A stretch of 55,659 nt of DNA, from positions 1-55,659 of the forward strand of contig JAZLMR010000087.1 of NCBI GenBank assembly GCA_045598785.1, read 5' to 3'. The notes beneath the pieces were generated by a model. That model did no database searches. It had not been told where the DNA came from and saw only the letters and a list, made by a program, of their open reading frames with translations. A program made the position numbers and the translations under genes. Below are positions 43,277 through 55,018 of this stretch, piece after piece (the first letter of the stretch is position 1; every line of letters starts with the position of its first letter). Origin of the DNA: Kiritimatiellia bacterium. GTDB lineage: Bacteria > Verrucomicrobiota > Kiritimatiellia > RFP12 > UBA1067.

Positions 43277-45472
43277 TTATGCCAGGCAACGGACATTGCC
43301 CGCGAAGTCGGCGACATAAAGCCGGTCGCCGTCCACGGCCGCCGAGGCGAGATACGGTACGCCCGTGAAAATCCACTTCCGCCGCTCGCCGGTCTGCGGA
43401 TCCCAGGCATAGACCGCGCCATCCTGCGCCGTCGCCCAGACGAGATCCCGCCACACGACCGGCACCGAACACAGCGAACGGATCGGCGAATACTTGTAAG
43501 CCGGCAGCGAATAGAGCGCCGGCTCCACGCTCGCCTTCCAGACGATTTCCAGCGTCGACTCGTCCAGGCACACCAGTCCCTCGCTGGCGCTGCCGAAATA
43601 GATGCGCCCGGCATGAAATACCGGCGAGGTAAAGCAGGAGACCGAAAACGGAAACGCCCGCTCCCGCAGAATCTTGCCGGTCTTCGGGTCGGCCTCGAAA
43701 TAGCGGTTGTGACCGGTCAGGATCAATTTGCCGCCGCGATAGACCGGGAAGCCCATGCATTCCAGCCAGGGCTCGGCCAGCCGATGCCGTTCCTGCGCCG
43801 TCGGCGCGTCGCCCAGCCGGTGCGTCCACAGCGTCTTGCCAGTCCGGGCGTCATAGCCGAAAGTCCCGGCCCAGTTGGCCCGGCCGACGATCACCTCGTC
43901 ACAAACGGCACAAGGCGTCGGCGAACCGAGGAAAATGCCGTGGGTGGCATCCGTGCGCCAGACCACCTTCGCCGTCTCCGGGTCGAGGGCGAACAGCGAC
44001 TTGAAGGCGCTGCCGACAAACAACCGGTTGGTGGCCGCGTCATAATTCAGGAACGACTGCGAAAAGCCAGAAGCGCCGCCCCACATCCGCGAACCGGTAT
44101 AGCCGACTTCGTCCCGCGCGTCAAAATGCCAGATCACCCGGCCGGTCTGCGCCTCCAGCGCATAGACCTGCCAGAAGGTGTCGTTCACGAAAACCCGATC
44201 GCCGCGAACGAGCGCCGACGACATCACATCGCCGCGCGTCTTGAAGAACCAGCGCCGCTCGCCAGTTCGCGCATCAAAGGCCCAGAGCCCCGGCGTACAG
44301 GCGCCGGAATAGTCGACCGTCCCCACATAGACATTGCCCGCGCCGATCGCCGGCATCGAATAATAGACATTGCCGCCGCCCGTCTTCGCGAGCCAGCCCC
44401 CGGCCATTGCCGGCGCCGGCGGCTGCCACTGATGTTCAAGATCGAAGACATTGTCGACTTTTTCCACCCGCCCCCGGGCATCGAGGCGCACCACCTGCAG
44501 CGTGGCGTCGTTCTTGTTCGGCGGCGCCGCCGACACAATGGCCAGCCGTCCGTCGTCGGACCGATAGCAATAATTCTGATGGATATGCCCGTGCACCACC
44601 GCCCGCACCTGGCAAAGCGCAGTAACCTCAAAGGGCTCGCGGCTTTCGGTGGTGATGACCGAATGCGAAAATAACTTCCGAAGGTCCCAAAGTCGGGAAT
44701 CGACGCCGCCATGGGTCAGAATCACAACCGGCTGCTGCCTGCGGGCGGCAATCGCGAGGTCGTTGCGCAGCCAGGCGACCACGTCTTCCACCCCGTAGTC
44801 GGGCTTGCCGTCGCCCCATATCATCGGCGTCGCGACGAAATGCGTGCCGCCGGCGTCGAACGAATACCAGCAGGGCCCGAAGGTGTCTTCAAAAATCTGC
44901 TCGGCGCGGACCGGCCCCTTGAGGTCGTGGTTGCCGACGACATAGAAGACCGGGCAGCCGACCGTCTCCGCATTCATCAGCTCGGCGTGCTTGGGCATCC
45001 GCTGGCCGTCAATGTCGCCGGTATGCACCACAAAAGCCGCGCCGGTCTCGGCCGCCAGCGCCTTCGTCTTCGCCACCCAGCGCCGTTCGTCATCCAGCCG
45101 TTTCAGCTGAATCTCACTGTCGCCGATGTGGACGAAGGCGACCTTGCCGGTTCGTGAAGCCGCCCAAGGCTCCAGCGCAAAATCATAGTTCCGGCCGGGG
45201 CCCGCGTACTTGAGATAATGGCGGGCGATTTTCCAGCCGCTCGGCACCGTCACCGAAATGAACCGCGCCCTGGCATTCGCCGGCAACACCCAGGTGCCGT
45301 CAGCTTTCGTTTCCACGCAGTTGATGCCGTCACTGACCACCACGCCCGCCAGCGGTCGACCGCCAGCCGTGACTTTCCCGCCCACCGGCTCCGTCGCCAA
45401 CGCCTCTCCCGAGGCCACCAACACGCCGCCGACCGCAGCCCCGCAAATAAAAGAACGCCGATTAACTTCCAT
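43277..45472 (-). CDS. Tat-exported calcineurin-like metallophosphoesterase + PQQ-type beta-propeller
   Basis: NRRSFI Tat motif from MEVN; HIGD, HTGD, GNHD, HGHIH metal motifs; repeated A-x-D-x-x-TG-x-x-x-W blades. Confidence 0.87.
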   Translation of the reverse strand: MEVNRRSFICGAAVGGVLVASGEALATEPVGGKVTAGGRPLAGVVVSDGINCVETKADGTWVLPANARARFISVTVPSGWKIARHYLKYAGPGRNYDFALEPWAASRTGKVAFVHIGDSEIQLKRLDDERRWVAKTKALAAETGAAFVVHTGDIDGQRMPKHAELMNAETVGCPVFYVVGNHDLKGPVRAEQIFEDTFGPCWYSFDAGGTHFVATPMIWGDGKPDYGVEDVVAWLRNDLAIAARRQQPVVILTHGGVDSRLWDLRKLFSHSVITTESREPFEVTALCQVRAVVHGHIHQNYCYRSDDGRLAIVSAAPPNKNDATLQVVRLDARGRVEKVDNVFDLEHQWQPPAPAMAGGWLAKTGGGNVYYSMPAIGAGNVYVGTVDYSGACTPGLWAFDARTGERRWFFKTRGDVMSSALVRGDRVFVNDTFWQVYALEAQTGRVIWHFDARDEVGYTGSRMWGGASGFSQSFLNYDAATNRLFVGSAFKSLFALDPETAKVVWRTDATHGIFLGSPTPCAVCDEVIVGRANWAGTFGYDARTGKTLWTHRLGDAPTAQERHRLAEPWLECMGFPVYRGGKLILTGHNRYFEADPKTGKILRERAFPFSVSCFTSPVFHAGRIYFGSASEGLVCLDESTLEIVWKASVEPALYSLPAYKYSPIRSLCSVPVVWRDLVWATAQDGAVYAWDPQTGERRKWIFTGVPYLASAAVDGDRLYVADFAGNVRCLA

Positions 45473-45483
45473 GACAAAATATT

Positions 45484-46290
45484 TTACAACAAACCGCAGA
45501 AAAAGACAAAGGCGGAGCGGCTTGCCGCACGTGTCATGCCGGAACATTCGTCGGCATCTGCCGCATTCCCATAAACATATTTCCTATGATAAGCAAGATA
45601 AGCACATTGCTTATCAGAAAGAGGTTGCCGCAGGCGAAGATCAGACGAAAGATTGTAGAGCGAAACCGCCACAGAGGAAAGCTGCGGGGAAAGCAGCATT
45701 GAACCGTCATCGGCGAAAGTGATGAGGCCCTGATCGAAGAGCGCGTCGAGGTGGACGGCCAGAGGGAATCCATTGGCGGGATCGAGGCGTTCGGCATCGG
45801 TGATGGTCGGATCGTGCCAGGGCTTGGCATGGGAGGCGCGGAGCAAGGCGCGGTCAGTGATGCCGGTCACGGCGCAGGCATTGCCCCAAAGGGCGAGCTG
45901 CTTGACCTTGTAGAGATGCTGGCCGAGGCGTGTCTTCACCCGCGCAATCGACTCGGTGATCGGCGTCGCGGGTTCGCCCGGATCGGACGGCAGTTCCGCC
46001 GCCGCGGTGAACATCTTGCCAATCAGCTCAAGATGGTCGGTAATGTCATTCGGCGCATGCGGAACCGAAAGACAATCCTCGACGGCCCATTGCGGGAACG
46101 CCGCGATAAGCCCCGCCTGATTGCGCGAACCACGAAACATGAAATTCTCGCCATCATCCGCAATCGCCACCTGATTCGGTTGGTGAACGCTCGCAAACAC
46201 CGCCACCTCGTCCGTCGGCTGGTTCGGCCCAAGTTCAAAACGGTTGTTGTAAGCCGTCGTCTGGATGATGCCGTAGAGCAAAGCCGTCAT
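45484..46290 (-). CDS. HNH endonuclease (putative restriction/defence nuclease)
   Basis: RLGQ, CAVTG, LRASHAKPW, NGFPL..HLDALFDQGLITF. Confidence 0.85.
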   Translation of the reverse strand: MTALLYGIIQTTAYNNRFELGPNQPTDEVAVFASVHQPNQVAIADDGENFMFRGSRNQAGLIAAFPQWAVEDCLSVPHAPNDITDHLELIGKMFTAAAELPSDPGEPATPITESIARVKTRLGQHLYKVKQLALWGNACAVTGITDRALLRASHAKPWHDPTITDAERLDPANGFPLAVHLDALFDQGLITFADDGSMLLSPQLSSVAVSLYNLSSDLRLRQPLSDKQCAYLAYHRKYVYGNAADADECSGMTRAASRSAFVFFCGLL

Positions 46291-47057
46291 GTCGATTCGC
46301 CTTTCACGGGCATGCCACCATTCGCCCGCAATCCAGCAGCAAGCCGCTTACCTTTGGCTGTCAGACGATATTTCTGCAACCTACTGTTCGGCTTCTCAGG
46401 AATGGTAAATTCAATGATGCCGTCATCCAGCAACACGCGGGCATAACGACGACGAAGATTCTTTGTCTCAACAATGCCAAGTTGTTGTGCCAAATCAACG
46501 CACCCCATTGCTCCGTTCGACAACGCCAACACAATTTGTTCAAACCGATTAAGCGCAACAGCGACGACTGGGGTCACCCTCCCGACTGGGGGCAAGTTTT
46601 TGCCCCCAGTCCTGCCCCCAGTCGTAATCAGACCTTTCAGCGCATCAACCCGAGTTTTCTTTGCCTTACCACCTCTGACTGGGGTCAGGTTTTTGACTGG
46701 GGTCAGGTTCGTGACTGGGGTCACCTTCTCATTGCGCCAGATGATCGTCTTGAAGTCCACATTGTCCGGACAATACTCCGGATCGGGCAAGCCCCACGCG
46801 CGACACTTGTTGATGATATCGCCCGTACCGCTGCCGGACTTCTCAACATAGCTCGTCCACGACATCGCCCGTGCGTCGCAAGACCGAACCTCGTCCAGAT
46901 ACACCTTCTGCGGCGAGCGATTGCACGCCACCGTTTCCTCAAACAGGAATGGATCGAAGAACAGCTTCAATACGCGATCTTTCCGAATCGCCGCCGCAAT
47001 CGCCTTCCGTTCCTTTGAGAACTCTCGCTGTACGCTCGATATGAACACCCGATACAT
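46287..47057 (-). pseudogene. Internally deleted DUF4062 / HATPase-tail / winged-helix protein
   Basis: VFISSVQREF...YLDEVRSCD joined directly to ARAMSWTSYVEKSGSG...; C-terminal FTIPEKPNSRLQKYRLT wHTH. The reading frame is open. Confidence 0.65.
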
Positions 47058-47064
47058 CTTATCG

Positions 47065-47118
47065 ACCTCCGACTCACATTATACCATCAACTCGGAACCT
47101 CGCCGAGAATCCGGTCGC
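47065..47118 (-). repeat. 54-bp promoter+RBS cassette, copy 1
   Basis: 49/54 identical to 50753-50806; contains TGGTATAAT and GGAGGT on the minus strand. Confidence 0.9.
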
Positions 47119-48250
47119 TCAGGCACACGACGCGATACTTGTCAAACTTCGGCAAAGTAAAGCCCCCTTCACCAGCGTTCTCCAGTCCAGCCGTAACGAT
47201 GTCGCCCATCTCATGACAACGTTGATAGAGCTCCTGCTTGGTCGGGAGCCGATCAATCGTCGGGTAAAGCGAGAGGAAGAGCATCCGTCCCTCGGCGCAG
47301 AACTTTTCTTTTTCTCTCGTCGGATGCCAGCGATCGTAGAACCCTTCGGGAGACAAGACGACCCAGCGTCCGCCAGCCGCGGCAATGGCGTTGCCACATT
47401 CTTTTTCCAACGGGCTCATGAAGGTTCCGACTCCCGCACCGCCAGGGCCGATGCGAGCGCAATCTTCGACCATCGCAACCCACTCGCGAGAACCGGGTTT
47501 CGTCGCGCGATGGCCCTTTACGGCCTTTAGAACCGGCAGCTCAAGAATCGCCAAATTGCCATAGGCAAACCACTCGCGCCCGAGAAACGAGACCTTTCGA
47601 ACCTTACCGAAATACTGGCGGTTCTGCTGTCGCAGCCAGGCTCGCTCGGGGTTCTCGCGAATGTAGCGCGTAAACGCCGCGAGCTGGCCGTCTTTCTTCA
47701 CGATCCAATCGTGCCAGTCGCGCTCGAAGATCGGCGGCGGTTTGCCCGACGGAGGAACGTTGCCCGACGGAGCGGGCAACACAACACTCTGATCGTTAGA
47801 CGGCCCGCCCATCATCAGAGTGCTGTCTGGGCGGTTCCGTCCGCCCGACATTCCCTCCACCTCCCAGTAAGCCGCCGTCAGCGCCTTCATCAGCTGGTAA
47901 ACGTACTTGCCGAGCGCCAGCTGATCACCCGTGTCTTTGATGTGGATCAGCAGGTGAATGTGATCGGGCATTACGATGAAACAGTCAATCGGCCAAAGCC
48001 CCCACCACTTCGTATGAAACTCGCGAATCACCCGCGCAAACGCCGTTGCCAGCTCATTGGCAATCAAGTACCGTCTTCGACCTTTCGCGTCTTTCGGCGG
48101 AGCCTTCTCCTTCGTAATCTCGCAAAACGGCCGCAGCCCCTTCACCCGCTTCAGCGTCACCATGTAGAAGTAGGACTTCGTGTAATCGAACCCCTTCAGC
48201 CGCTTCATGGTGGCCTTCGTAAGCTTAATTGTCATCGTTTGCGTTGACAT
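47087..48250 (-). CDS. HUH Y1/RAYT-like transposase fused to a DprA/SLOG-like domain (paralog 1)
   Basis: FDYTKSYFYMVTL, VMPDHIHLL, WHDWIV, YIRENP; C-terminal AYGNLAILELP...EGRMLFLS. Confidence 0.8.
   Translation of the reverse strand: MSTQTMTIKLTKATMKRLKGFDYTKSYFYMVTLKRVKGLRPFCEITKEKAPPKDAKGRRRYLIANELATAFARVIREFHTKWWGLWPIDCFIVMPDHIHLLIHIKDTGDQLALGKYVYQLMKALTAAYWEVEGMSGGRNRPDSTLMMGGPSNDQSVVLPAPSGNVPPSGKPPPIFERDWHDWIVKKDGQLAAFTRYIRENPERAWLRQQNRQYFGKVRKVSFLGREWFAYGNLAILELPVLKAVKGHRATKPGSREWVAMVEDCARIGPGGAGVGTFMSPLEKECGNAIAAAGGRWVVLSPEGFYDRWHPTREKEKFCAEGRMLFLSLYPTIDRLPTKQELYQRCHEMGDIVTAGLENAGEGGFTLPKFDKYRVVCLSDRILGEVPS
47759..47848. repeat. Inverted pair of REP-like hairpins inside the transposase CDS
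   Basis: Copy A 47759-47793 (minus) and copy B 47814-47848 (plus). Confidence 0.8.
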
Positions 48251-48271
48251 GTTGTCTAAACCGCTCTCGCC

Positions 48272-48306
48272 ATCCGAGTGTTGTCCGGGCGGCCCCGTCC
48301 GCCCGG
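48272..48306 (+). repeat. Third REP-like hairpin, upstream of the transposase
   Basis: atccgagtgttgt-ccgggcgg-ccccgt-ccgcccgg. Confidence 0.8.
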
Positions 48307-48317
48307 TGCCGATGTGA

Positions 48318-49037
48318 CTACCGATATTTCATCTGGCTCAGCGTCTGCGCTTCGTAGGCGAGCTTGAAAGCCACCGCCGCGAGCTTGGGCTGTTCGTTTT
48401 CAACAAGCACAAGCGGCTGACGCCGCGAGATCTCAAGATCAACCAGCAGCTGCGCGACGTCAACCGGCCTGAAGATGTCGGGAATCGTCATGAGCGCACC
48501 GGTATCCATGAAGCAATTCCACGACGGATCGCAAAACGGCAAGAGTCCCGTCGCATAGACTTCGCCGCAGCCCTCATGGAAATGCTCGCTACCCGCGACA
48601 TCAACCAAAACCACTTCCTGCTGGGCTAACAGATCGACACACTTTACGCCAAAACCCTTGCGAGACTTGACAGGTCTGAGCAAGGTAAAGCGATAGCGGC
48701 TCATAACCTCGGCGACTTCACGCTTCTCTGCGTCATCAGAAGCGCCATACTTGTCAATGTAATGTCTCCGAGGCGACGGGCCGGCTCGATCATTGAGGAG
48801 CAGCGCGTAGTCGAGGATCAGCGTGTTTTCGGCCTCGTGGTTCTCGCCTTCCTCGTACCCTTCTCGCGGCGTAACGCCATTGTAAAGCCGATGCGCCGCC
48901 GACTTGAGCGCGTCATCGCCCAGCAGCGGCTGCATCACCTCTGCTACTTCGCGTGCCGTCAAGGTCCGCAGTCTGCGATATTCGGTCAGCGCTCTTGCGC
49001 GGTCGTCTTTGTTCTTCATCCATGCTGTACTTGCCAT
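48318..49037 (-). CDS. Hypothetical protein (239 aa)
   Basis: GAAAGGTG SD. The FTLL...GFGVKCVDLL...VLVDVAGS segment recalls the core of SEC-C-associated proteins, but there is no SEC-C motif. Confidence 0.65.
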   Translation of the reverse strand: MASTAWMKNKDDRARALTEYRRLRTLTAREVAEVMQPLLGDDALKSAAHRLYNGVTPREGYEEGENHEAENTLILDYALLLNDRAGPSPRRHYIDKYGASDDAEKREVAEVMSRYRFTLLRPVKSRKGFGVKCVDLLAQQEVVLVDVAGSEHFHEGCGEVYATGLLPFCDPSWNCFMDTGALMTIPDIFRPVDVAQLLVDLEISRRQPLVLVENEQPKLAAVAFKLAYEAQTLSQMKYR

Positions 49038-49146
49038 AACTTCACCTTTCTGTTTCTATAGAGCTTGCACTTCAAATTCATCGGGCACTTCTTTTCTCAT
49101 CTTGACAGCCCCTGCCATCTTCGGGCGCTGGCGCAACAAAGCTACA

Positions 49147-50748
49147 CTATTTCTGTCTTTTCAGCACATTACGGCCCTTCTGCGTAATGAAATAACGCAA
49201 CCGCGAATTGTGAAGCGACAGTCCTGCCTCTGGGACAATCAAGCCTGCTCGAATGGCTGGGTTGATGTAATTTGCACGAAATGTAGGACGATGCACAATT
49301 GACAAGGTCGTACGAAGTGCAGCTGCCGTTTGTGGTCCGTTCATCAGCACATTTAACAATGACAAAACCTGGGGTGGCACTGGGTCGGTCACTGGATCGG
49401 TCACTGGGTCGGTCACCGGGTCACTAACTGGGTCACTAACTGGGTTGGTTACTGGGTCGGTCGGATTCAATTCCCGTACCGTTTCAGCATCTGCCCTTAA
49501 GAACATCTTGTGGATCGGCAGCACGAACGTGAAGAAATCCCGATGCGAATTCGTCTCCAAGACCGGCTTCGGCGATCCGTTTTTCTCCGCCGCGCTCAGG
49601 ATGACCGGATATCCCGTATTACGCGCCTCCGCAAGATCCAGCTCCTTCAGGAACTCGCCTATGCGTCGATTGCGATCACCCTTTGACAGAAGACAGAGGC
49701 GTTTCAGGTCTGCCGTCTTAATTGATCGATCAGGACCAGGGATGCTGGTGATCGTCATTTGCTCAGGCGTGAACGTCACGACAATTGGCTCCGGTTTGCT
49801 GTACGACTTATGATAGACCGCGTTGACCAATGCCTCCTCGACGGCATCATACGGATAATTCCAATGCCGTTCGGCCTTTGCTCGACCCGAGACCTTGAAT
49901 ATCTTCTCCTTGAGAACATAGTTCTTGATGTAGTCCAACGCCGACCGAAGCTGGATGTGCAACGGGCCCTTGAAATACTTCTCGACCATTCCCTGGCCCG
50001 TCGGATCGGGCTTGTCCACGATTTCGATCCACGCATAGCGGAAGAAGTTCTCCGGGTGCGGATTGAAGAACATGAGTCCGACGTTCAACGGCTTGATGAG
50101 CTCTTCCGCACCGCTGACAATGCGCAGCCGCTTCCCCAGCTCCAGCGGGGACATCTCTTCGGCTGCCGGATAAAGCTCGCTCCCCACTTCGCGCAGATAA
50201 TCCGCAATCAGGTTGACCTTCAGATCCGCCACATCCGCCTGCATGTTCGGGCGATCGTCAAACGGCACGTCCCCCGCCATCTCGAAAAGCTCCTTCTCAA
50301 TCAGGCGAGAGGCCCTGACCGTGCTCGCCATCTTGCGGACATAGTACGCCCTTGGAGACTTCCCCTTCTTCAGAATCCGCTCGGGACAGGAATAGGGCCG
50401 CTCACAGCCGCCGGGCGCCCACACGATCAGCAAGGTCTTCCCCAGATATTCAACGGGCTCGACAACCGGCAGGTACAGCGGTTCGATGAGATGGCAAACA
50501 CCCAAGAGTTCCTTCTGGATCTGATCAACCGCCCCCGTCGGCAATCCCTTGACCGGAAACACCGGCTTACCGTCCTTCTCGGCGACGCCCAGGATGATAT
50601 ACCCACCGCCCCAGTTGTCGATGTCATTCGCAAAGGCGCAAAGCGTATGCAGCACCTTCTCAGGATTCCACCCTTCCTTGTACTCGATCCTCGCCCACTC
50701 CACCTTGCGGTGGTTCACGAGATCGTCAATGTTCACTGGTAACGCCAT
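49147..50748 (-). CDS. Schlafen/AlbA_2 + HATPase-like (RecG C-terminal type) + winged-helix protein
   Basis: IEYKEG, LCAFAND, GGYIILGV; YPYDAVEEALVNAVYHKSY; RNRRIGEFLKELDLAE..TG; C-terminal wHTH. Confidence 0.88.
   Translation of the reverse strand: MALPVNIDDLVNHRKVEWARIEYKEGWNPEKVLHTLCAFANDIDNWGGGYIILGVAEKDGKPVFPVKGLPTGAVDQIQKELLGVCHLIEPLYLPVVEPVEYLGKTLLIVWAPGGCERPYSCPERILKKGKSPRAYYVRKMASTVRASRLIEKELFEMAGDVPFDDRPNMQADVADLKVNLIADYLREVGSELYPAAEEMSPLELGKRLRIVSGAEELIKPLNVGLMFFNPHPENFFRYAWIEIVDKPDPTGQGMVEKYFKGPLHIQLRSALDYIKNYVLKEKIFKVSGRAKAERHWNYPYDAVEEALVNAVYHKSYSKPEPIVVTFTPEQMTITSIPGPDRSIKTADLKRLCLLSKGDRNRRIGEFLKELDLAEARNTGYPVILSAAEKNGSPKPVLETNSHRDFFTFVLPIHKMFLRADAETVRELNPTDPVTNPVSDPVSDPVTDPVTDPVTDPVPPQVLSLLNVLMNGPQTAAALRTTLSIVHRPTFRANYINPAIRAGLIVPEAGLSLHNSRLRYFITQKGRNVLKRQK
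49379..49462. repeat. 12-bp coding tandem repeat x7 (TDPV/SDPV)
   Basis: actgggtcggtc-type units. Confidence 0.9.
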
Positions 50749-50752
50749 AATC

Positions 50753-50806
50753 ACCTCCACCTCAAATTATACCATCAACCCGGAACCTCCCCGAGAATCC
50801 GGTCGC
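50753..50806 (-). repeat. 54-bp promoter+RBS cassette, copy 2
   Basis: Near-identical to 47065-47118. Confidence 0.9.
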
Positions 50807-50839
50807 GTGTCTGAACTGTCCCTTAGGCATAATCACCCC

Positions 50840-52027
50840 TCATTCTGCACTACGAATACCAACAGCTGCTCTGGCAAGTGATTCAACCTGAGAAGGCACA
50901 ACGCCCCTGTAGGCGATTTCAATCGCACCTTCGCCCGAAAGCAATTGTGCCAGCCGATTAAGCACGCAGGCATCAAGCCTCGTCATCTTTTTCTCACCGG
51001 GAAGATAAGGCCATCCGACAGGCGCCAGCATCAGCAAATTCCCGGCTGCGCACTGGTCAAAGAGCTTCCCGCCCGGCTTGTAAAGCGGGGAAAAGCCCTT
51101 GTTGGAAAGGGTTATCACCTTGTGTCCCGCCACGAAGGCCCGTCGCGCGATCTCGCGCTCGCCTTCGCTGATGCACGGAGAGACCAAGACCGCGCCATGC
51201 GCCGCCTCGTCCAACAGGGCTTCGCTCGTCGTTCGGAACTCGTCGCTCGCAACACGCGGTTCGCGATCTTTGAGAATCGCCCCCTTGCCGTCACGTTGGT
51301 AGGCGAAGAATCGACGCGAGCATTGCACCTGCAAAATTGACGGGGCCTTCAGCAGATGGTGGTTGCCAATAGCCGAGAAATGCCCAACAACGCCTCCGCC
51401 AAGGTCGACCGGCAGATCGCGCAACACCGTGAACAACTCTGGGTGAGCGCGTTTCTCCCAGAGACGGCGCGGGTTATCCGCAAGATAGGCGAGCTCATGG
51501 TCTATCGCCGCCTTGTCAAAGAGAATCGTATCGACATAACCCTCGGCGAACAGCGGCCCAGGGCTTTTCAGCCCTGGCGCACAGGCCCCTTGCGCCTCGG
51601 CTGAAAAGCCGAGGGTCGCCCAATAGGCCTTGGTGGCCGCGCCCTTGAGACCCCGTATCGCGTAACCAACCGGCTTTTTCATCGACCGTTTGACACGCAA
51701 GACAAGATGAAGATGATCAGGCATCACCTGCACGCCCAGCACTTCAATCTCTGGGCTGAACTCGGGTATGCGCCAGACGAAGCTCTCAACCAACTGCCCG
51801 AGATCGGTCAGCGCCACGAAGGCCCCGCGTCCCTTCTCGTAGCCCAACGACCCCAAAAGGTTTGCCCGCCGATCCGCCAACGTGATCGTGATCTGATAGG
51901 CACCCCGTCCACAGTAATCCCAATTGTGACAACGACGCCCCATCCGATGAACGACATCGCGCATCAACGCGCCCGTGTCATCATCGTAATGCCACCCAGG
52001 TGGTGCAACTGGAACGTCAGCGCTCAT
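50840..52027 (-). CDS. HUH Y1/RAYT-like transposase fused to a DprA/SLOG-like domain (paralog 2)
   Basis: WDYCGRGAYQITI, VMPDHLHLVL, GYVDTIL, YLADNP; C-terminal AIGNHHLL..P...CSR, GAVLVSP, GNLLML, NRLA. Confidence 0.82.
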   Translation of the reverse strand: MSADVPVAPPGWHYDDDTGALMRDVVHRMGRRCHNWDYCGRGAYQITITLADRRANLLGSLGYEKGRGAFVALTDLGQLVESFVWRIPEFSPEIEVLGVQVMPDHLHLVLRVKRSMKKPVGYAIRGLKGAATKAYWATLGFSAEAQGACAPGLKSPGPLFAEGYVDTILFDKAAIDHELAYLADNPRRLWEKRAHPELFTVLRDLPVDLGGGVVGHFSAIGNHHLLKAPSILQVQCSRRFFAYQRDGKGAILKDREPRVASDEFRTTSEALLDEAAHGAVLVSPCISEGEREIARRAFVAGHKVITLSNKGFSPLYKPGGKLFDQCAAGNLLMLAPVGWPYLPGEKKMTRLDACVLNRLAQLLSGEGAIEIAYRGVVPSQVESLARAAVGIRSAE

Positions 52028-52595
52028 CTTTTCTAAACGCCTCCAGCACCATGCGCATCGTGCGGTATTCGCCGAATTCGGCGATTTCCTTTTCTTTGAG
52101 GACGCGGAAGGATTCGGAAGGATAGTCGGGGCCGTAGACGGCGGATGGATCGAGGATGTAGGTCAGCTCTTCCTCGTTAAGCCCGTAGAGCTTGGCATAA
52201 CGGGCGTCAATGGGGATGAAAAACGTCAGCGATTTTCCCGATCCCGTCCCTGTCGTCACCACATAGCTTTTGTTGCTGGCAACAAAAGCCAGGGCATTCA
52301 TCTGGTGCTTGTAAAGCGTAATCGGATTAGGCGCTGGCGGATCATCTTGCTTGCCAACCTGAAAAATTTCCGCCGTTTCCGGTTCCACCGAGCCATCCGC
52401 AACCAACGCATCAATCCGACTACCCTTCTTGTAATTCGGATTAATCTGAATCAACGGATCCGGCCAAAACGTCCCCTTGTCATAAGCTTGCCGAACCACC
52501 GCCGAGATGTCAGCCGAACGAGGATTCGCAAAGTTCGTCGAAAAGCTCCGGTATCTATCCATCAACTTCTTGCGAAAATCAAAAATATCGTTCAT
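52017..52595 (-). pseudogene. Chimera: DEAD/DEAH helicase N-terminus fused to a DNA methylase (type IIG-like) C-terminus
   Basis: WPDPLIQINP, LYKHQ, TTGTGSGKSL then IDARYAKLYGL..EELTYILDP...SFRVLKEKEIAEFGEYRTMRMVLEA. Confidence 0.75.
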
Positions 52596-52725
52596 GCAAA
52601 CTCTCTCATTATTATGAGGCTATTATATCATTTTCAACTATGAAAACCGCAACGCTTCTATCCCATCTATTGTTTAGACCTAATCAACTAAAAGATGTAA
52701 CATGGAGAAACCTGCCGCACAACTG

Positions 52726-52754
52726 AAAAAGGCGGAGCCGTGCGGCCCCGCCTT
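52726..52754 (-). terminator. Rho-independent terminator of the ribosomal protein operon
   Basis: Minus strand AAGGCGGGGCCGCACGGCTCCGCC-TTTTT just after the rplI stop. Confidence 0.8.
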
Positions 52755-52787
52755 CGGTTGCGACCTTCAGTCGCCTGCGCCCCGGGC

Positions 52788-53255
52788 TCAGGCCTGCGGC
52801 GCCTCCTCGTCAAGAATCGTGATCTTGAACGCCACGATGACCCCGTGACCGAGATCGATCTTGGGCTCGTACACGCCGACTTCGCGCAGCGCATCGTCGA
52901 GCTCCAGCTGCGAACGCTCGAGCTTAACCCCGCGGTTGGCTTCGATCGCGGCGAGAATATCGCTGATGCCCACCGAACCATAGAGCTTCTTGCCGTCCGT
53001 CGTGTGCGCGGAGACCGTGAGCTCGAGCTTCTCGAGCTTCTTGGCGAGCTCCAGCGCCGCCTTCTTCTCTTCGGCGGCGCGCGCCGCGCGCTCGGCCTCG
53101 AGCTTTTTCAGCCGACGCTTGGCCGCTTCCGTGGCCACCGCGGCGAGTCCCTTCGGGAAGAGGCAGTTGCGGGCATAGCCGGGGGCGACCTTGACGATCT
53201 CGCCGGCCTTGCCGAGCTTCTTCACGTTATCCATGAGCATGACTTCGATCTGCAT
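52788..53255 (-). CDS. rplI: 50S ribosomal protein bL9
   Basis: LGKAGEIVKVAPGYARN, KLYGSV. Confidence 0.97.
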   Translation of the reverse strand: MQIEVMLMDNVKKLGKAGEIVKVAPGYARNCLFPKGLAAVATEAAKRRLKKLEAERAARAAEEKKAALELAKKLEKLELTVSAHTTDGKKLYGSVGISDILAAIEANRGVKLERSQLELDDALREVGVYEPKIDLGHGVIVAFKITILDEEAPQA

Positions 53256-53274
53256 AAGATGTTCTCCTTTCAGA

Positions 53275-53505
53275 TTAAGCCATGAGGCCCATGTTGCGGG
53301 CGCGCTTGACACCCTGACGGATCTGGCGCTGCTGAGCGCTGGTCACGCCGGTGATGCGCGCGGGCAGGATCTTGCCGTAGTCCGTGATGTAGTACTTGAG
53401 GGTTTCAATGTCGTTCACGTCGATCTGATCGGTCGGACGGAGCGGCGGACGCTTACGGGCGGCGAATTCCTCGCCAGCCGAGCTATTGGATTTCTTGAAA
53501 GCCAT
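53275..53505 (-). CDS. rpsR: 30S ribosomal protein bS18
   Basis: GKILPARITG...QRQIRQGVKRAR. Confidence 0.96.
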   Translation of the reverse strand: MAFKKSNSSAGEEFAARKRPPLRPTDQIDVNDIETLKYYITDYGKILPARITGVTSAQQRQIRQGVKRARNMGLMA

Positions 53506-53524
53506 TTTCGTTTACCTTTTGAGT

Positions 53525-53935
53525 TTAGAATGGAATGTCGTTGTCATCGCCTTCGGTCATGGCCGCGACCGGTTCCGCCGCCTTGGCGCCGCCGTTGAGG
53601 CGGTCGCCCTGAGGCAGGAACTTGATCGTCGACGCCCGGACCTTCAGCTTCTGGTGCTTGACGCCGTCCTTCTCCCAGCTGTCCATCTGAAGCCGCCCCT
53701 CGACGAGAATCGCCCGACCCTTCGTAAGGAACTGCCCGCAAAGCTCGGCAAGCTTGTCCCAGGCGTCGACATCGACGAACACCGGGAAATCCTGCACATT
53801 GCCGTTGCGGTCACGACGGCGCTCGTTGACCGCAAGACCGATGCGGGCGACCTTCATGCCGCTCGTGCCGGTCACGCGGACATCCGGGTCGCGCGTCAAA
53901 TTGCCCATCAGGATGACTTTATTGAAAGACGCCAT
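53525..53935 (-). CDS. ssb: Single-stranded DNA-binding protein
   Basis: NKVILMGNLTRDP, KGRAILVEGRL, DDNDIPF tail. Confidence 0.97.
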   Translation of the reverse strand: MASFNKVILMGNLTRDPDVRVTGTSGMKVARIGLAVNERRRDRNGNVQDFPVFVDVDAWDKLAELCGQFLTKGRAILVEGRLQMDSWEKDGVKHQKLKVRASTIKFLPQGDRLNGGAKAAEPVAAMTEGDDNDIPF

Positions 53936-53953
53936 TTCGGCACCTCACCTTCC

Positions 53954-54343
53954 TTAGGCCTCGACCTTCGCCGCCAGCGCCGCGGCCGCAGCCGCCTCGC
54001 GCTTGGCCTGAGCCTCGGCGCGCTCGGCGCGTTCCTGAGCGATCTTCGCCTCGCGACGATCGTCAACCGCCAGTACCTGCACGCGGAACACCTCTTCGAC
54101 GAGATGATAGCGGTTGGCAAGTTCCTCGAGCTTCGACGGATCGATCTCGAAACGGACCTTCACGTAAACGCCGCTGTCGCGCTTCTTCATCGGACGCGAA
54201 AACGTGCGCTTGCCGAGCGAGACCTTCTCGAGGATGTTGCCGCCGAGCCGCGTCACTTCCGCGAGCGCCTTCTCCAGGTTGGCTTCGAGAGCATCATCCT
54301 TGGCAATGCCGACGAAGATATAAAGAGCATCATACTTCTTCAT
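53954..54343 (-). CDS. rpsF: 30S ribosomal protein bS6
   Basis: MKKYDALYIF, LGKRTFSRPMKK, EEVFR; position before ssb-rpsR. Confidence 0.92.
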   Translation of the reverse strand: MKKYDALYIFVGIAKDDALEANLEKALAEVTRLGGNILEKVSLGKRTFSRPMKKRDSGVYVKVRFEIDPSKLEELANRYHLVEEVFRVQVLAVDDRREAKIAQERAERAEAQAKREAAAAAALAAKVEA

Positions 54344-54358
54344 TGCAGTTCTCCTCAA

Positions 54359-55018
54359 TTACTTCGCAGGCGCCTTTTCGGCTTCCTCTTCCTTGCCCTT
54401 CTTGATCACTTCCGGAGCCTTCTCCTCGGCCGCCGCACCCGGCTGCACCGCCGGCGCGTCATCCGGAGCCTTGACCACCGCCAACGCGAGTTCGCCGCGG
54501 GTCACGACCGTGAACTTGTCGCCGAGCTTGAGATCGCGAACGAAGAGCGTCTGGTCGAGACCGAGACCCGAAACGTCGACGTCGAACTTTTCGGGGATGT
54601 CCGTCGGCAGGCAGTCGATGTCGATCTTACGGAGCGCCTGCTGCAGCACGCCGCCGCCGATCTTCACGCCCACGGCTTCGCCGACGAGATACAGCGGCAC
54701 CGTAATGCGGACCTTTTCGGTCAGCGAGACTTCGCTGAAATCCACGTGAATGGGAGTACCCTTAAGGACGTCGTTCTGCATTTCACGCAGCAGCGCCGGG
54801 ACCTCGGTACCGTTAATATCGAGCGTAACCAGCACCTGCTTGCCAGTGTTGCCACGCATCGCCACCATAAAGGCGTGCTCCGGGAGCTTGATGAGCTCCG
54901 TGCCGCCCTTCTTCATCTTCATCACCGAGCCGGGAATCATCCCCGCGCGGCGCAAACGACGGACCGCGCCCGTACCCTGCTCGGTACGCGCTTCCGCCAT
55001 GAGCTTGATCTGTTCCAT
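54359..55018 (-). CDS. rplY: 50S ribosomal protein bL25 (Ctc-type, long form)
   Basis: RRLRRAGMIPG, PIHVDF, GEAVGVKIGG, DVDVSGL. Confidence 0.95.
   Translation of the reverse strand: MEQIKLMAEARTEQGTGAVRRLRRAGMIPGSVMKMKKGGTELIKLPEHAFMVAMRGNTGKQVLVTLDINGTEVPALLREMQNDVLKGTPIHVDFSEVSLTEKVRITVPLYLVGEAVGVKIGGGVLQQALRKIDIDCLPTDIPEKFDVDVSGLGLDQTLFVRDLKLGDKFTVVTRGELALAVVKAPDDAPAVQPGAAAEEKAPEVIKKGKEEEAEKAPAK

Follow-up and report, generated by a model that had tools for sequence, protein, structure and literature searches.

Two genes in a 55,659-nucleotide stretch of DNA from a Kiritimatiellia bacterium (positions 1 to 55,659 of contig JAZLMR010000087.1, assembly GCA_045598785.1; the whole stretch is called the window here) encode proteins, P0001 and P0002, that combine a HUH/Y1 nuclease related to RAYT (REP-associated tyrosine transposase, REP being repetitive extragenic palindrome) with a DprA-like Rossmann domain. 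The main new result is that genes of this HUH-DprA-like family contain perfect hairpins, located in frame and at the gene ends, which are private to each gene and covary. The explanation that we favor, and to which we give about an even chance, is that these proteins are RAYT-type cut-and-rejoin enzymes acting in cis on their private hairpins, with a DprA-type grip on single-stranded DNA (ssDNA).

Domain architecture of the two proteins

The two genes and the predicted domains of their products are as follows.

47087-48250, (-) strand: P0001 gene, 387 amino acids, RAYT-like HUH/Y1 domain and DprA-like domain (open reading frame, homologs, model)
47612-48208, (-) strand: predicted HUH/Y1 nuclease domain of P0001, about residues 15-213, with H97, H99, Y196, and N200 (structural alignment and invariant columns)
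47168-47608, (-) strand: predicted DprA-like Rossmann domain of P0001, about residues 215-361, with R248 and R344 (ShosA/DprA structural matches)
47087-47167, (-) strand: non-native C-terminal tail of P0001 and stop codon, reading into a 54-nucleotide repeat (homolog ends, model confidence)
50840-52027, (-) strand: P0002 gene, 395 amino acids, RAYT-like HUH/Y1 domain and DprA-like domain (open reading frame, homologs, model)
51431-51940, (-) strand: predicted HUH/Y1 nuclease domain of P0002, about residues 30-199, with H105, H107, Y181, and N185 (structural alignment, Foldseek, PDB profile)
50891-51430, (-) strand: predicted DprA-like Rossmann domain of P0002, residues 200-379, with R238 and R358 (ShosA/DprA structural matches)

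An earlier, sequence-only reading of this DNA had described the two open reading frames as divergent paralogs sharing an MPDHxH motif, a downstream Y-x-x-x-N-P tyrosine, and a patterned C-terminal extension, and all of this is borne out. The proteins are distant relatives (23% identity over 261 columns, BLASTP E-value 2e-12), with the motifs VMPDHIH (residues 93-99) and Y196-IRE-N200-P201 in P0001, and VMPDHLH (residues 101-107) and Y181-LAD-N185-P186 in P0002. Another 170-190 residues follow the Y-x-x-x-N-P motif in each protein and bear the pattern GN..LL..P...SR / G.VLVS / V..L..GF / G.LL.L /.R. Among 42 sequences from the P0001-like and P0002-like subfamilies, 31 alignment columns are invariant, including H105, H107, Y181, N185, P186, R188, R238, G278, S287, E290, G311, F312, and R358 (P0002 numbering), and this set did not change when the alignment was redone with P0001 first.

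The P0002 structure was modeled with AlphaFold2 from the 42-sequence alignment (mean predicted local distance difference test score, pLDDT, 86.8), and P0001 was modeled separately (pLDDT 81.5). Structural matches were obtained with Foldseek against the PDB for P0002, and with a second, Foldseek-independent aligner (VIA-align) for both proteins. The N-terminal half of P0002 matches RAYT (4er8, Z 12.5) and 2vhg (Z 10.7), and that of P0001 matches the TnpA structures 2ec2 (Z 11.3) and 2vhg (Z 11.2) and RAYT 4er8 (Z 10.9). Foldseek also assigned the first half of P0002 to the ISDra2, IS608, and IS200 transposases and the Escherichia coli RAYT (E-values from 2e-6 to 3e-4 with probability 1.00 for the ISDra2/IS608 TnpA), and a PDB sequence profile search with P0002 matched 2xo6 at an E-value of 1.5e-5. 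In the second half of P0002, Foldseek found ShosA and the DprA proteins of Helicobacter pylori, Streptococcus pneumoniae, and Rhodopseudomonas palustris. The independent aligner gave ShosA 8zva (Z 12.1, residues 200-379), DprA 4ljk (Z 10.4, residues 200-378), and DprA 3uqz and 3maj (Z 10.0 and 8.7, both residues 200-379) for this half, and ShosA 8zva (Z 12.4), DprA 4ljk and 3uqz (both Z 10.4), and 3maj (Z 8.8) for the C-terminal half of P0001. The DprA Rossmann core superimposes on the models with a root-mean-square deviation of about 3 Å over 136-143 residues, and other SLOG proteins (1rcu, 2iz5, 2nx2, 1weh, 1t35, and 5ajt) score below the DprA clade (Z 5.1-6.3).

These models, together with the invariant H-x-H and tyrosine residues, confirm the predicted HUH/Y1 (RAYT-like) nuclease fold of the N-terminal halves (Z 10.7-12.5) and the DprA-type SLOG fold of the C-terminal halves. 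The Foldseek comparison proposed with the sequence-only reading was thus carried out and agrees with its DprA/SLOG assignment. Since the separate P0001 and P0002 models give the same matches, the combined architecture is right for both genes.

In H. pylori DprA, ssDNA is bound through a G-S/T/A-R motif in the β3-α3 loop and an F/L/Y-x-x-R-N/D motif in helix α6, as given in the text of PMC3950713. The invariant arginines of the family appear to stand at the expected places of both motifs: R238 (C-S-R in P0002, G-H-R in P0001) at the first, and R358 (V-L-N-R in P0002, Y-Q-R in P0001) at the second; the motif glycine and Asn/Asp are not conserved in the family. A profile-profile comparison (hhalign) with the DprA of the clade places FSAIGN..LL..P..QVQCSR on LYVRGD..L..P.VAVVGTR over 48 columns (probability 4%, E-value 0.01), and this match was used solely for the register of the first ssDNA motif. 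The models align with residues 9/10-162/170 of H. pylori DprA and 70-236 of the 283 residues of S. pneumoniae DprA. The aligned ranges end at residues 162-170 and 228-236, respectively, and P0001 and P0002 themselves end about 15-30 residues later. The homodimer prediction score (0.00 against a mark of 0.42) is evidence neither way.

The 3' end of the P0001 gene is anomalous. Its homologs end at about residues 352-363, and the last ~25 residues (about 362-387) have no counterpart, have pLDDT below 50, and run into a 54-nucleotide repeat common to both loci. For these reasons the native 3' end of P0001 has been replaced.

Private hairpins in and around the genes

The hairpin elements of the two window genes are listed below.

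47755-47852, (-) strand: in-frame hairpin cluster of P0001, residues 134-166, with three stem-loops in the loop connecting the HuH and Tyr helices (DNA fold, inverted repeat)
48271-48305, (-) strand: second copy of the P0001 hairpin element, with an 8-bp stem, 6-nucleotide loop, and 16-nucleotide tail, 21 nucleotides upstream of the start codon (repeat match, fold z -2.28)
51553-51619 (folded segment 51545-51625), (-) strand: in-frame REPIN-like hairpin doublet of P0002, residues 137-159 (inverted repeat, fold)

The first and third stem-loops of the P0001 cluster are diverged inverted copies of one another. The cluster folds as DNA at -29.7 kcal/mol (z -5.39), which was equaled by none of 200 shuffles, and residues 136-167 of the protein model, corresponding to this hairpin loop, have pLDDT below 50. 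The upstream copy is 86% identical over 35 nucleotides to positions 47813-47847, that is, to the first P0001 hairpin with its 16-nucleotide tail. The P0002 doublet consists of two perfect stem-loops with an 8-bp perfect stem, whose 12-nucleotide cores are reverse complements of each other (fold z -4.37, again with 0 of 200 shuffles as good); here residues 146-151 have pLDDT below 50. The P0001 element is present in just its two copies and the P0002 doublet in one in the source genome (G000), with no further copy of either anywhere in its 2.06 Mb. A blastn-short search for REPs with window positions 45000-53500 against G000 found the 54-nucleotide repeat alone, and Rfam and tRNA scans of the window gave nothing.

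To describe hairpins across the family, we counted perfect stems of at least 8 bp with loops of 3-8 nucleotides in 93 distinct genes, the linker being the stretch between HuH and Tyr. Linker hairpins are present in 51 of the 93 genes, with 49 cases among the 64 linkers of at least 75 nucleotides and two among the 29 shorter ones, whereas only 145 of 2162 control windows of the same length elsewhere in the same genes (6.7%) hold such a hairpin. As the sequence-only reading supposed, hairpins of their own are present in the two window genes, and they recur in the family. The stems, of 8-11 bp, are found at the gene ends and, within the reading frame, in the DNA for two surface loops. On the P0002 scale, the hairpins concentrate at residues 130-160 (69 hairpins) and 200-220 (32 hairpins), with minor spots near 60 and 240; within 150 nucleotides outside the genes, there are 27 upstream and 35 downstream.

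Extra copies of the linker element (E-value below 1e-3) were detected for 19 of 71 genes, and nearly all of them lie inside the gene or at most 150 nucleotides beyond it, in loci that extend over as much as 17 kb. The most extreme case is locus L035 (7785-9353), where one 20-nucleotide hairpin occupies 13 sites, in tandem 29-nucleotide units on both flanks and in three loops; all 13 sites lie in or around the gene within 1.5 kb, and the rest of the 3.0-Mb genome (G103) has none. In L088, hairpin copies are situated 28 nucleotides from each gene end. The hairpin of the Hallella/Prevotella genes has one or two sites per genome (G041 and G042), and another family hairpin has one or two sites at the gene in three genomes. 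Additional matches of the latter in the 5.2-Mb genome G043 were rejected as chance, being few, imperfect, and located in unrelated genes that are not paralogs.

The stems differ between lineages yet stay perfect. In a set of five homologous genes, 40 of 40 alignment cells are paired and four of eight base pairs have changed on both sides, a score reached by none of 500 shuffles, and slid controls reach 45% pairing at most. Another set, of six genes, has 95.8% of its cells paired and two of eight pairs changed on both sides (3 of 500 shuffles); some of the stem changes in this set are synonymous on both arms. The hairpins are private to each gene, unlike the dispersed REP/REPIN populations. They may be likened to the paired ends of an IS200-type element, although in this family many of the copies fall within the reading frame.

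A possible mode of action and the points against it

We propose that the RAYT-type (TnpA-Y1 class) HUH/tyrosine enzyme would nick and rejoin ssDNA at a hairpin, and that the shortened DprA-type Rossmann domain would hold the neighboring single strand. Each gene lineage would maintain a private, co-evolving hairpin, copies of which flank the gene closely and also occupy, in frame, two disordered surface loops, the gene and its sites probably forming a self-contained "one-gene REPtron." The enzyme could recognize the hairpins when the locus becomes single-stranded during replication or transcription, and its cut-and-rejoin activity in cis may have multiplied them locally, giving rise to the tandem 29-nucleotide arrays and the in-frame copies. 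Such a module could survive as a selfish passenger of low copy number that resides for the most part in variable regions and within immune operons. What was observed directly is that both folds are present, that the catalytic and presumed DNA-binding residues are conserved, and that the hairpins exist, covary, and are confined to the gene; from these observations we infer cleavage, hairpin recognition, and ssDNA binding.

That these three activities are inferred is one of several points that weigh against the proposal, some of which concern the domain assignment. The Pfam DprA family (PF02481) has no match in P0001 or P0002 at an E-value of 1 or better, the PDB sequence profile search returned Y1 transposases alone, with no DprA among 19 matches at E-values up to 10, and the profile-profile similarity to DprA has the low probability given above. 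Curated models detect the nuclease half only, and weakly: Pfam Y1_Tnp (PF01797) gives 17.6 and 16.8 bits, below its cut-off of 23, and the NCBIfam RAYT model (NF047646, REP-associated tyrosine transposase) gives 35.3 and 25 bits against a cut-off of 80. Other points concern the hairpins. In 42 of the 93 genes, there is no 8-bp linker hairpin, which means that this hairpin is dispensable for the protein, and P0002 has its internal doublet only, with no hairpin copy outside the gene in G000. The covariation sets are small (5 and 6 sequences), palindromes can stay symmetric via templated repair without selection, and the hairpins are also present in the mRNA, where a role at the RNA level is possible. 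As the genomes are metagenome bins (G000 consists of 2.06 Mb in 111 contigs and is 84.7% complete), copy number and dispersed repeats could be under-assembled. Finally, the frequent placement of the genes in immune operons suits a host-useful role as well as a selfish one.

Size and distribution of the family

The family is widespread, abundant, and unnamed. Word-based searches scored 8000 candidates for P0002, of which 2280 are relatives, and 4988 for P0001, of which 1112 are relatives; none of these relatives has a Pfam family, and the named ones bear the label "hypothetical protein," with a single "REP element-mobilizing transposase RayT." A profile search of 1.84 billion representatives gave 803 matches at E-values up to 1e-30, 6405 up to 1e-10, and 19073 up to 0.001, the weaker of which must include ordinary Y1 enzymes. 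The ESM Atlas neighbors are clusters of hypothetical proteins, the largest having 5029 members.

A scan of species-representative genomes found 261 relatives, and the best 80 of these 261 were retained. They belong to Kiritimatiellae, bins labeled Verrucomicrobia, Lentisphaerae/Victivallales, a Planctomycetaceae bin, Prevotella, Hallella absiana, and Muribaculaceae; the family is thus found in gut Kiritimatiellae, Lentisphaerae, and Bacteroidales, and the Hallella absiana homolog (L077) comes from a cultured strain. G000 contains one match for each gene. Among 41 genomes of the genus and order, P0002-like genes occur in 32 (E-value up to 1e-5), with up to eight divergent matches per genome, and P0001-like genes in 15 (E-value up to 1e-20), a few with internal stops. 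No family match was found in 72,556 plasmids and 50,697 phages, and one was found in 2.9 million viral contigs.

Comparison with known systems

The closest known relatives are RAYT/TnpA-REP proteins (E. coli YafM, 4ER8; TnpA-Y1 class 2), which have the same HUH/Y1 fold with D-H-u-H and Y-x-x-x-N-P motifs, and resemble the family also in having one copy per genome with divergent paralogs, a patchy spread, and, for part of the family, putative cognate hairpins beside the gene. As described in the text of Quentin et al. 2018 (PMC6006769), Y1 enzymes fall into 12 subclasses with a patchy distribution and distantly related copies within a genome; the subclasses have specific C-terminal domains of unknown role, and in RAYT subclass 2.4, REPs are inserted in frame between HuH and Y. 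In-frame hairpins are therefore a known RAYT trait, and those of the HuH-Tyr linker are of the same kind. The family differs from RAYT in being about twice the size, with a DprA-like domain of roughly 180 amino acids after the Tyr helix, and in having a second hot spot of in-frame insertions within this extra domain. Its hairpins are locus-private rather than dispersed REP/REPIN copies (G000; 13 of 13 sites in G103; one or two in G041 and G042), and the flanking repeats are mixed, with the P0001 copy 21 nucleotides upstream and none outside the gene for P0002. None of the Y1 subclasses tabulated in PMC6006769 fits: the longest averages 325 amino acids and has N-H-Y-H, whereas the family has D-H-[LI]-H and 350-400 amino acids.

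The TnpA transposases of IS200/IS605 insertion sequences (IS608 and ISDra2) share the fold and the catalytic set, and by analogy action on ssDNA hairpins would be expected of the family too. In contrast to these elements, the family has no multiple identical copies, tnpB, or conserved subterminal ends, scores below the Pfam Y1_Tnp cut-off, and has an asparagine four residues after the tyrosine, where subclass 1.1 has a glutamine (Y---Q, text of PMC6006769).

With DprA/Smf (PF02481; 4LJK, 3UQZ, and 3MAJ), the C-terminal domain shares the Rossmann core, and it has invariant arginines at what appear to be the two ssDNA-motif positions. It differs in being undetected by Pfam and PDB sequence profiles, in lacking a SAM domain, and in that the alignment with the models leaves out the last third of the DprA domain, where the dimer interface lies. 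The best structural match of this domain (Z 12.1 and 12.4) is ShosA of the anti-phage system Shosta (ShosTA, 8ZVA), a DprA-like ssDNA binder used outside transformation (PMC11961720). Unlike in Shosta, there is no ShosT phosphoribosyltransferase nearby, and the position in front of the Rossmann domain, taken by a SAM domain in ShosA, is here taken by the nuclease.

A nick site inside the initiator's own gene is found in phiX174 gene A and pT181 RepC, both HUH replication initiators, and the family may be analogous to them in having an HUH enzyme with a recognized site embedded in its own coding sequence. The sites in phiX174 and pT181 are origins of autonomous replicons, whereas no replicon, plasmid, or phage context was found for the family.

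The sequence-only reading had called the system undescribed, which stands in part. A fusion of HUH/Y1/RAYT with DprA was not found in the literature searched, and the word "Rossmann" is absent from the text of PMC6006769, whose supplementary figures (S6, S7, and S10) may show relevant domain data; extra C-terminal domains and in-frame REPs are described in that text.

The genomic island of the window

The neighbors of the two genes encode an AlbA_2/Schlafen-like protein, a 239-amino-acid protein of unknown family, a DUF4062 chimera, an HNH_2 nuclease, and a helicase fragment. By Pfam and PADLOC, they include no tnpB and no ShosT phosphoribosyltransferase, in agreement with the initial remark that neither tnpB nor typical insertion sequence ends are visible. 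The open reading frame at 52017-52595 (-), of 192 amino acids, is chimeric: residues 1-132 match the N-terminus of DruE/DrmD-type helicases, and the last 64 (residues 129-192) correspond, with 97% identity, to the C-terminus of a 1310-amino-acid DrmMI-like methylase in locus L015. To judge from the sequence, a DISARM-like system seems to have been lost here through a large deletion. In L015 and L128, a P0002-like gene is followed by an HNH gene, with which the HNH gene of the window (45484-46290) shares 52% identity. As the methylase end and the HNH gene both match the L015-type locus, P0002 is situated in the remains of a DISARM-like locus, with about 4.5 kb interposed between P0002 and the HNH gene that contain the AlbA_2-like gene, the 239-amino-acid open reading frame, P0001, and the DUF4062 chimera. 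Both window copies reside in a decayed DISARM-like island.

The repeat mentioned above has two copies in this region.

47065-47118, (-) strand: copy 1 of the 54-nucleotide repeat, promoter-like leader (TGGTATAAT, then GGAGGT) of the next gene downstream (fold z 0.23)
50753-50806, (-) strand: copy 2 of the 54-nucleotide repeat, ahead of the AlbA_2-like gene (fold z 0.19)

These direct repeats are 91% identical, and there are just two copies in the genome. They contain an extended -10-like TGGTATAAT and GGAGGT, and precede the genes next after each nuclease, which are nearly unrelated to one another (32% identity over 65 amino acids). The repeat looks like a shared promoter/leader or operator, separate from the nuclease module and not a hairpin.

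Other features of the island are as follows. The 256-amino-acid product of 46287-47057 (-) is apparently stitched together from DUF4062 (residues 3-61), a HATPase_c_4 fragment (residues 62-105), and Fic-like_C (residues 173-233). Tandem 12- and 18-nucleotide repeats at 49367-49462 and 46566-46727 encode DPVT and TPV(T/K)NL linkers in two AlbA_2/Fic-like_C proteins. The island abuts a ribosomal-protein/ssb cluster at 52788-55018 (-), with translations that by eye are L9-, S18-, SSB-, S6-, and L25-like.

The public sequencing runs compared, all as contigs, contain at most 17% of the sampled words each. A contig of run X1 joins 46306 to 49157 and skips 2850 bases (with a side of 24 letters and 40 other letters between); it hints weakly at a relative in which the AlbA_2-like and HNH genes may be direct neighbors, with the 239-amino-acid open reading frame, P0001, and the DUF4062 chimera missing. 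The joints 47827 to 48270 and 48306 back to 47857 in public contigs were not read as excision: the short side (36-37 letters) equals the repeat length and other letters lie between, so they are taken as the repeat aligning to its other copy.

Association with immune operons

No partner gene is conserved across 66 loci. In several loci, the gene is placed between hsdS and hsdR of type I restriction-modification systems, and type I restriction-modification genes are found nearby in 8 of 61 loci of the Planctomycetes-Verrucomicrobia-Chlamydiae (PVC) group; the corresponding counts are 0 of 19 for Bacteroidales and 0 of 53 for metagenome loci. Among 116 adjacent genes, there are five HsdR, four HsdS, four Cas1, and three mad5. 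Family members lie inside type I-C(-like) cas operons at L031:7073-12486, L026:7309-11915, and L028:7929-10185, next to cas1 or cas4, but at different junctions (cas7|cas4 in L031, cas4|cas1 in L026); L031 and L026 have a CRISPR array downstream (arrays of 17 and 19 repeats). In L015, the DrmMI-like methylase and an HNH nuclease enclose a P0002-like gene, with a DrmD/DpdE-like helicase upstream of it. The Hallella copy is found between leucine-biosynthesis genes and phosphoglucomutase.

Two further observations concern the type I loci. In one subfamily, a 257-amino-acid protein without a Pfam family is encoded 13-23 nucleotides upstream of the HUH-DprA-like gene, as follows.

L050:1484-2257; L054:3913-4686; L048:755-1528; L037:5798-6550: 257-amino-acid upstream protein, both genes being between the hsdS end and the hsdR start

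The 239-amino-acid open reading frame upstream of P0001 was rejected as an equivalent partner, since it is unrelated to this protein and was not found beside other family members. The hsdR gene of L119 (G071:C104) is 66% identical to that of L041, and the preceding HUH-DprA-like gene is only 34% identical to its L041 counterpart; among L113-L118, two hsdR genes at 63% have no HUH-DprA-like gene within 1.5 kb upstream. This comparison suggests that the gene at this junction was replaced or entered independently.

The first alternative to the cis-acting module is that these proteins are defense accessories, that is, immune effectors or sensors of restriction-modification, DISARM-like, and CRISPR operons that would attack or cap the single-stranded intermediates which phages and plasmids form during replication. 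In this case, ssDNA would be sensed by the DprA-like domain, as it is by ShosA, and the private hairpins would be cis decoys or autoregulators. The company of the window genes (HNH_2, AlbA_2/Schlafen-like, DUF4062, and the DruE/DrmD-like helicase fragment), the retained methylase end and HNH gene of an L015-type locus, the hsdS/hsdR and cas placements with the Hsd, Cas1, and mad5 neighbors, and the ShosA match all agree with such a role, as does the faster divergence of the HUH genes (78% identity) compared with the adjacent hsdR (97%). However, PADLOC has no model matching either protein, the partner genes vary, neither Bacteroidales nor metagenome loci are near type I systems, and the Hallella copy is among housekeeping genes. 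The variable position in cas operons is as expected of insertions, not of a fixed operon member, defense islands also gather mobile elements, and a nuclease with recognized hairpins in its own gene would target itself. On balance, a defense role seems rather unlikely, but it is the main alternative to a selfish module.

A related and somewhat more doubtful suggestion is that the modules specifically inhabit DNA-targeting immune operons, either as a compact single-stranded mobile element using addictive operons as safe havens or as an ssDNA-processing accessory feeding or guarding them, for instance by supplying single-stranded substrates to CRISPR adaptation genes.

Transposition and recombination as less likely explanations

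In another explanation, the gene and its flanking hairpins would constitute an autonomous IS200/IS605-like insertion sequence that excises and inserts as a single-stranded circle, the DprA-like domain helping to capture the strand. This would account for the Y1 transposase fold and catalytic residues, for same-sequence hairpins on both sides (the L035 arrays, the L088 copies, and the upstream and downstream hairpins of the 93 genes), for the patchy distribution with several paralogs per genome and some pseudogenes, for copies of one gene that are 84-97% identical in nucleotide sequence but have different flanks, and for the different insertion points in related cas operons. Nevertheless, we consider it improbable. 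There is a single match per gene in G000, and within-genome copies elsewhere are divergent, not identical. Sharp-ended homology "units" (L036/L069; L050/L054/L048/L037) were rejected as proof of transposition, their ends falling in the conserved hsdS end and hsdR start, which is shared context. In several operons, the gene and the next one overlap at stop and start codons, so that an outside right end would have no space; distant copies have no conserved non-coding ends, and the window genes have no tnpB beside them. The near absence from plasmids, phages, and viral contigs argues in the same direction, and no excision junction in public contigs stands up.

The mechanism suggested in the sequence-only reading, in which the nuclease would cut its own hairpins and the DprA-like domain would hand the strand to RecA, driving cassette exchange in the island, would suit a mosaic island (the 54-nucleotide repeat before two unrelated genes, the replaced P0001 3' end, chimeric open reading frames, and a possible 2850-bp three-gene indel) and the pair L018 and L065, with flanks 88-94% identical and HUH genes at about 53%, but it is very improbable, and neither of its steps is supported. 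The dimer interface of H. pylori DprA includes Pro183, Leu196, and Phe205, and RecA-contact residues of the pneumococcal DprA partly overlap the dimerization surface (text of PMC3950713). Since both models cover only H. pylori residues 9/10-162/170 and stop before these positions, the part required for RecA hand-over is not evident; moreover, a canonical DprA is encoded elsewhere in G000 (contig C65, the sole PF02481 match there) and in 24 of 25 genomes searched. As for cassette shuffling, the hairpins occur nowhere else in the genome, and none of the indel and repeat boundaries (46306/49157; 47065-47118; 50753-50806), unfolded at the repeats, lies at a hairpin of either nuclease. Because junctions and hairpins do not coincide, there is no sign of the nucleases shuffling the island.

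Implications

HUH/Y1 enzymes are the engines of IS200/IS605 elements and REP/REPIN populations, and serve as tools for covalent protein-DNA tagging. The family described here is a large unnamed branch that appears to couple such an enzyme to a DprA-type ssDNA binder and to hairpins changing in step with the gene. It offers many naturally orthogonal enzyme-hairpin pairs for testing, and it can be approached at the bench, as one homolog belongs to a cultured strain (Hallella absiana, L077). With all copies within 1.5 kb, it would be a clean system for studying how RAYT-type enzymes copy their sites, and it suggests a possible link between ssDNA processing and restriction or CRISPR operons in gut Kiritimatiellae.

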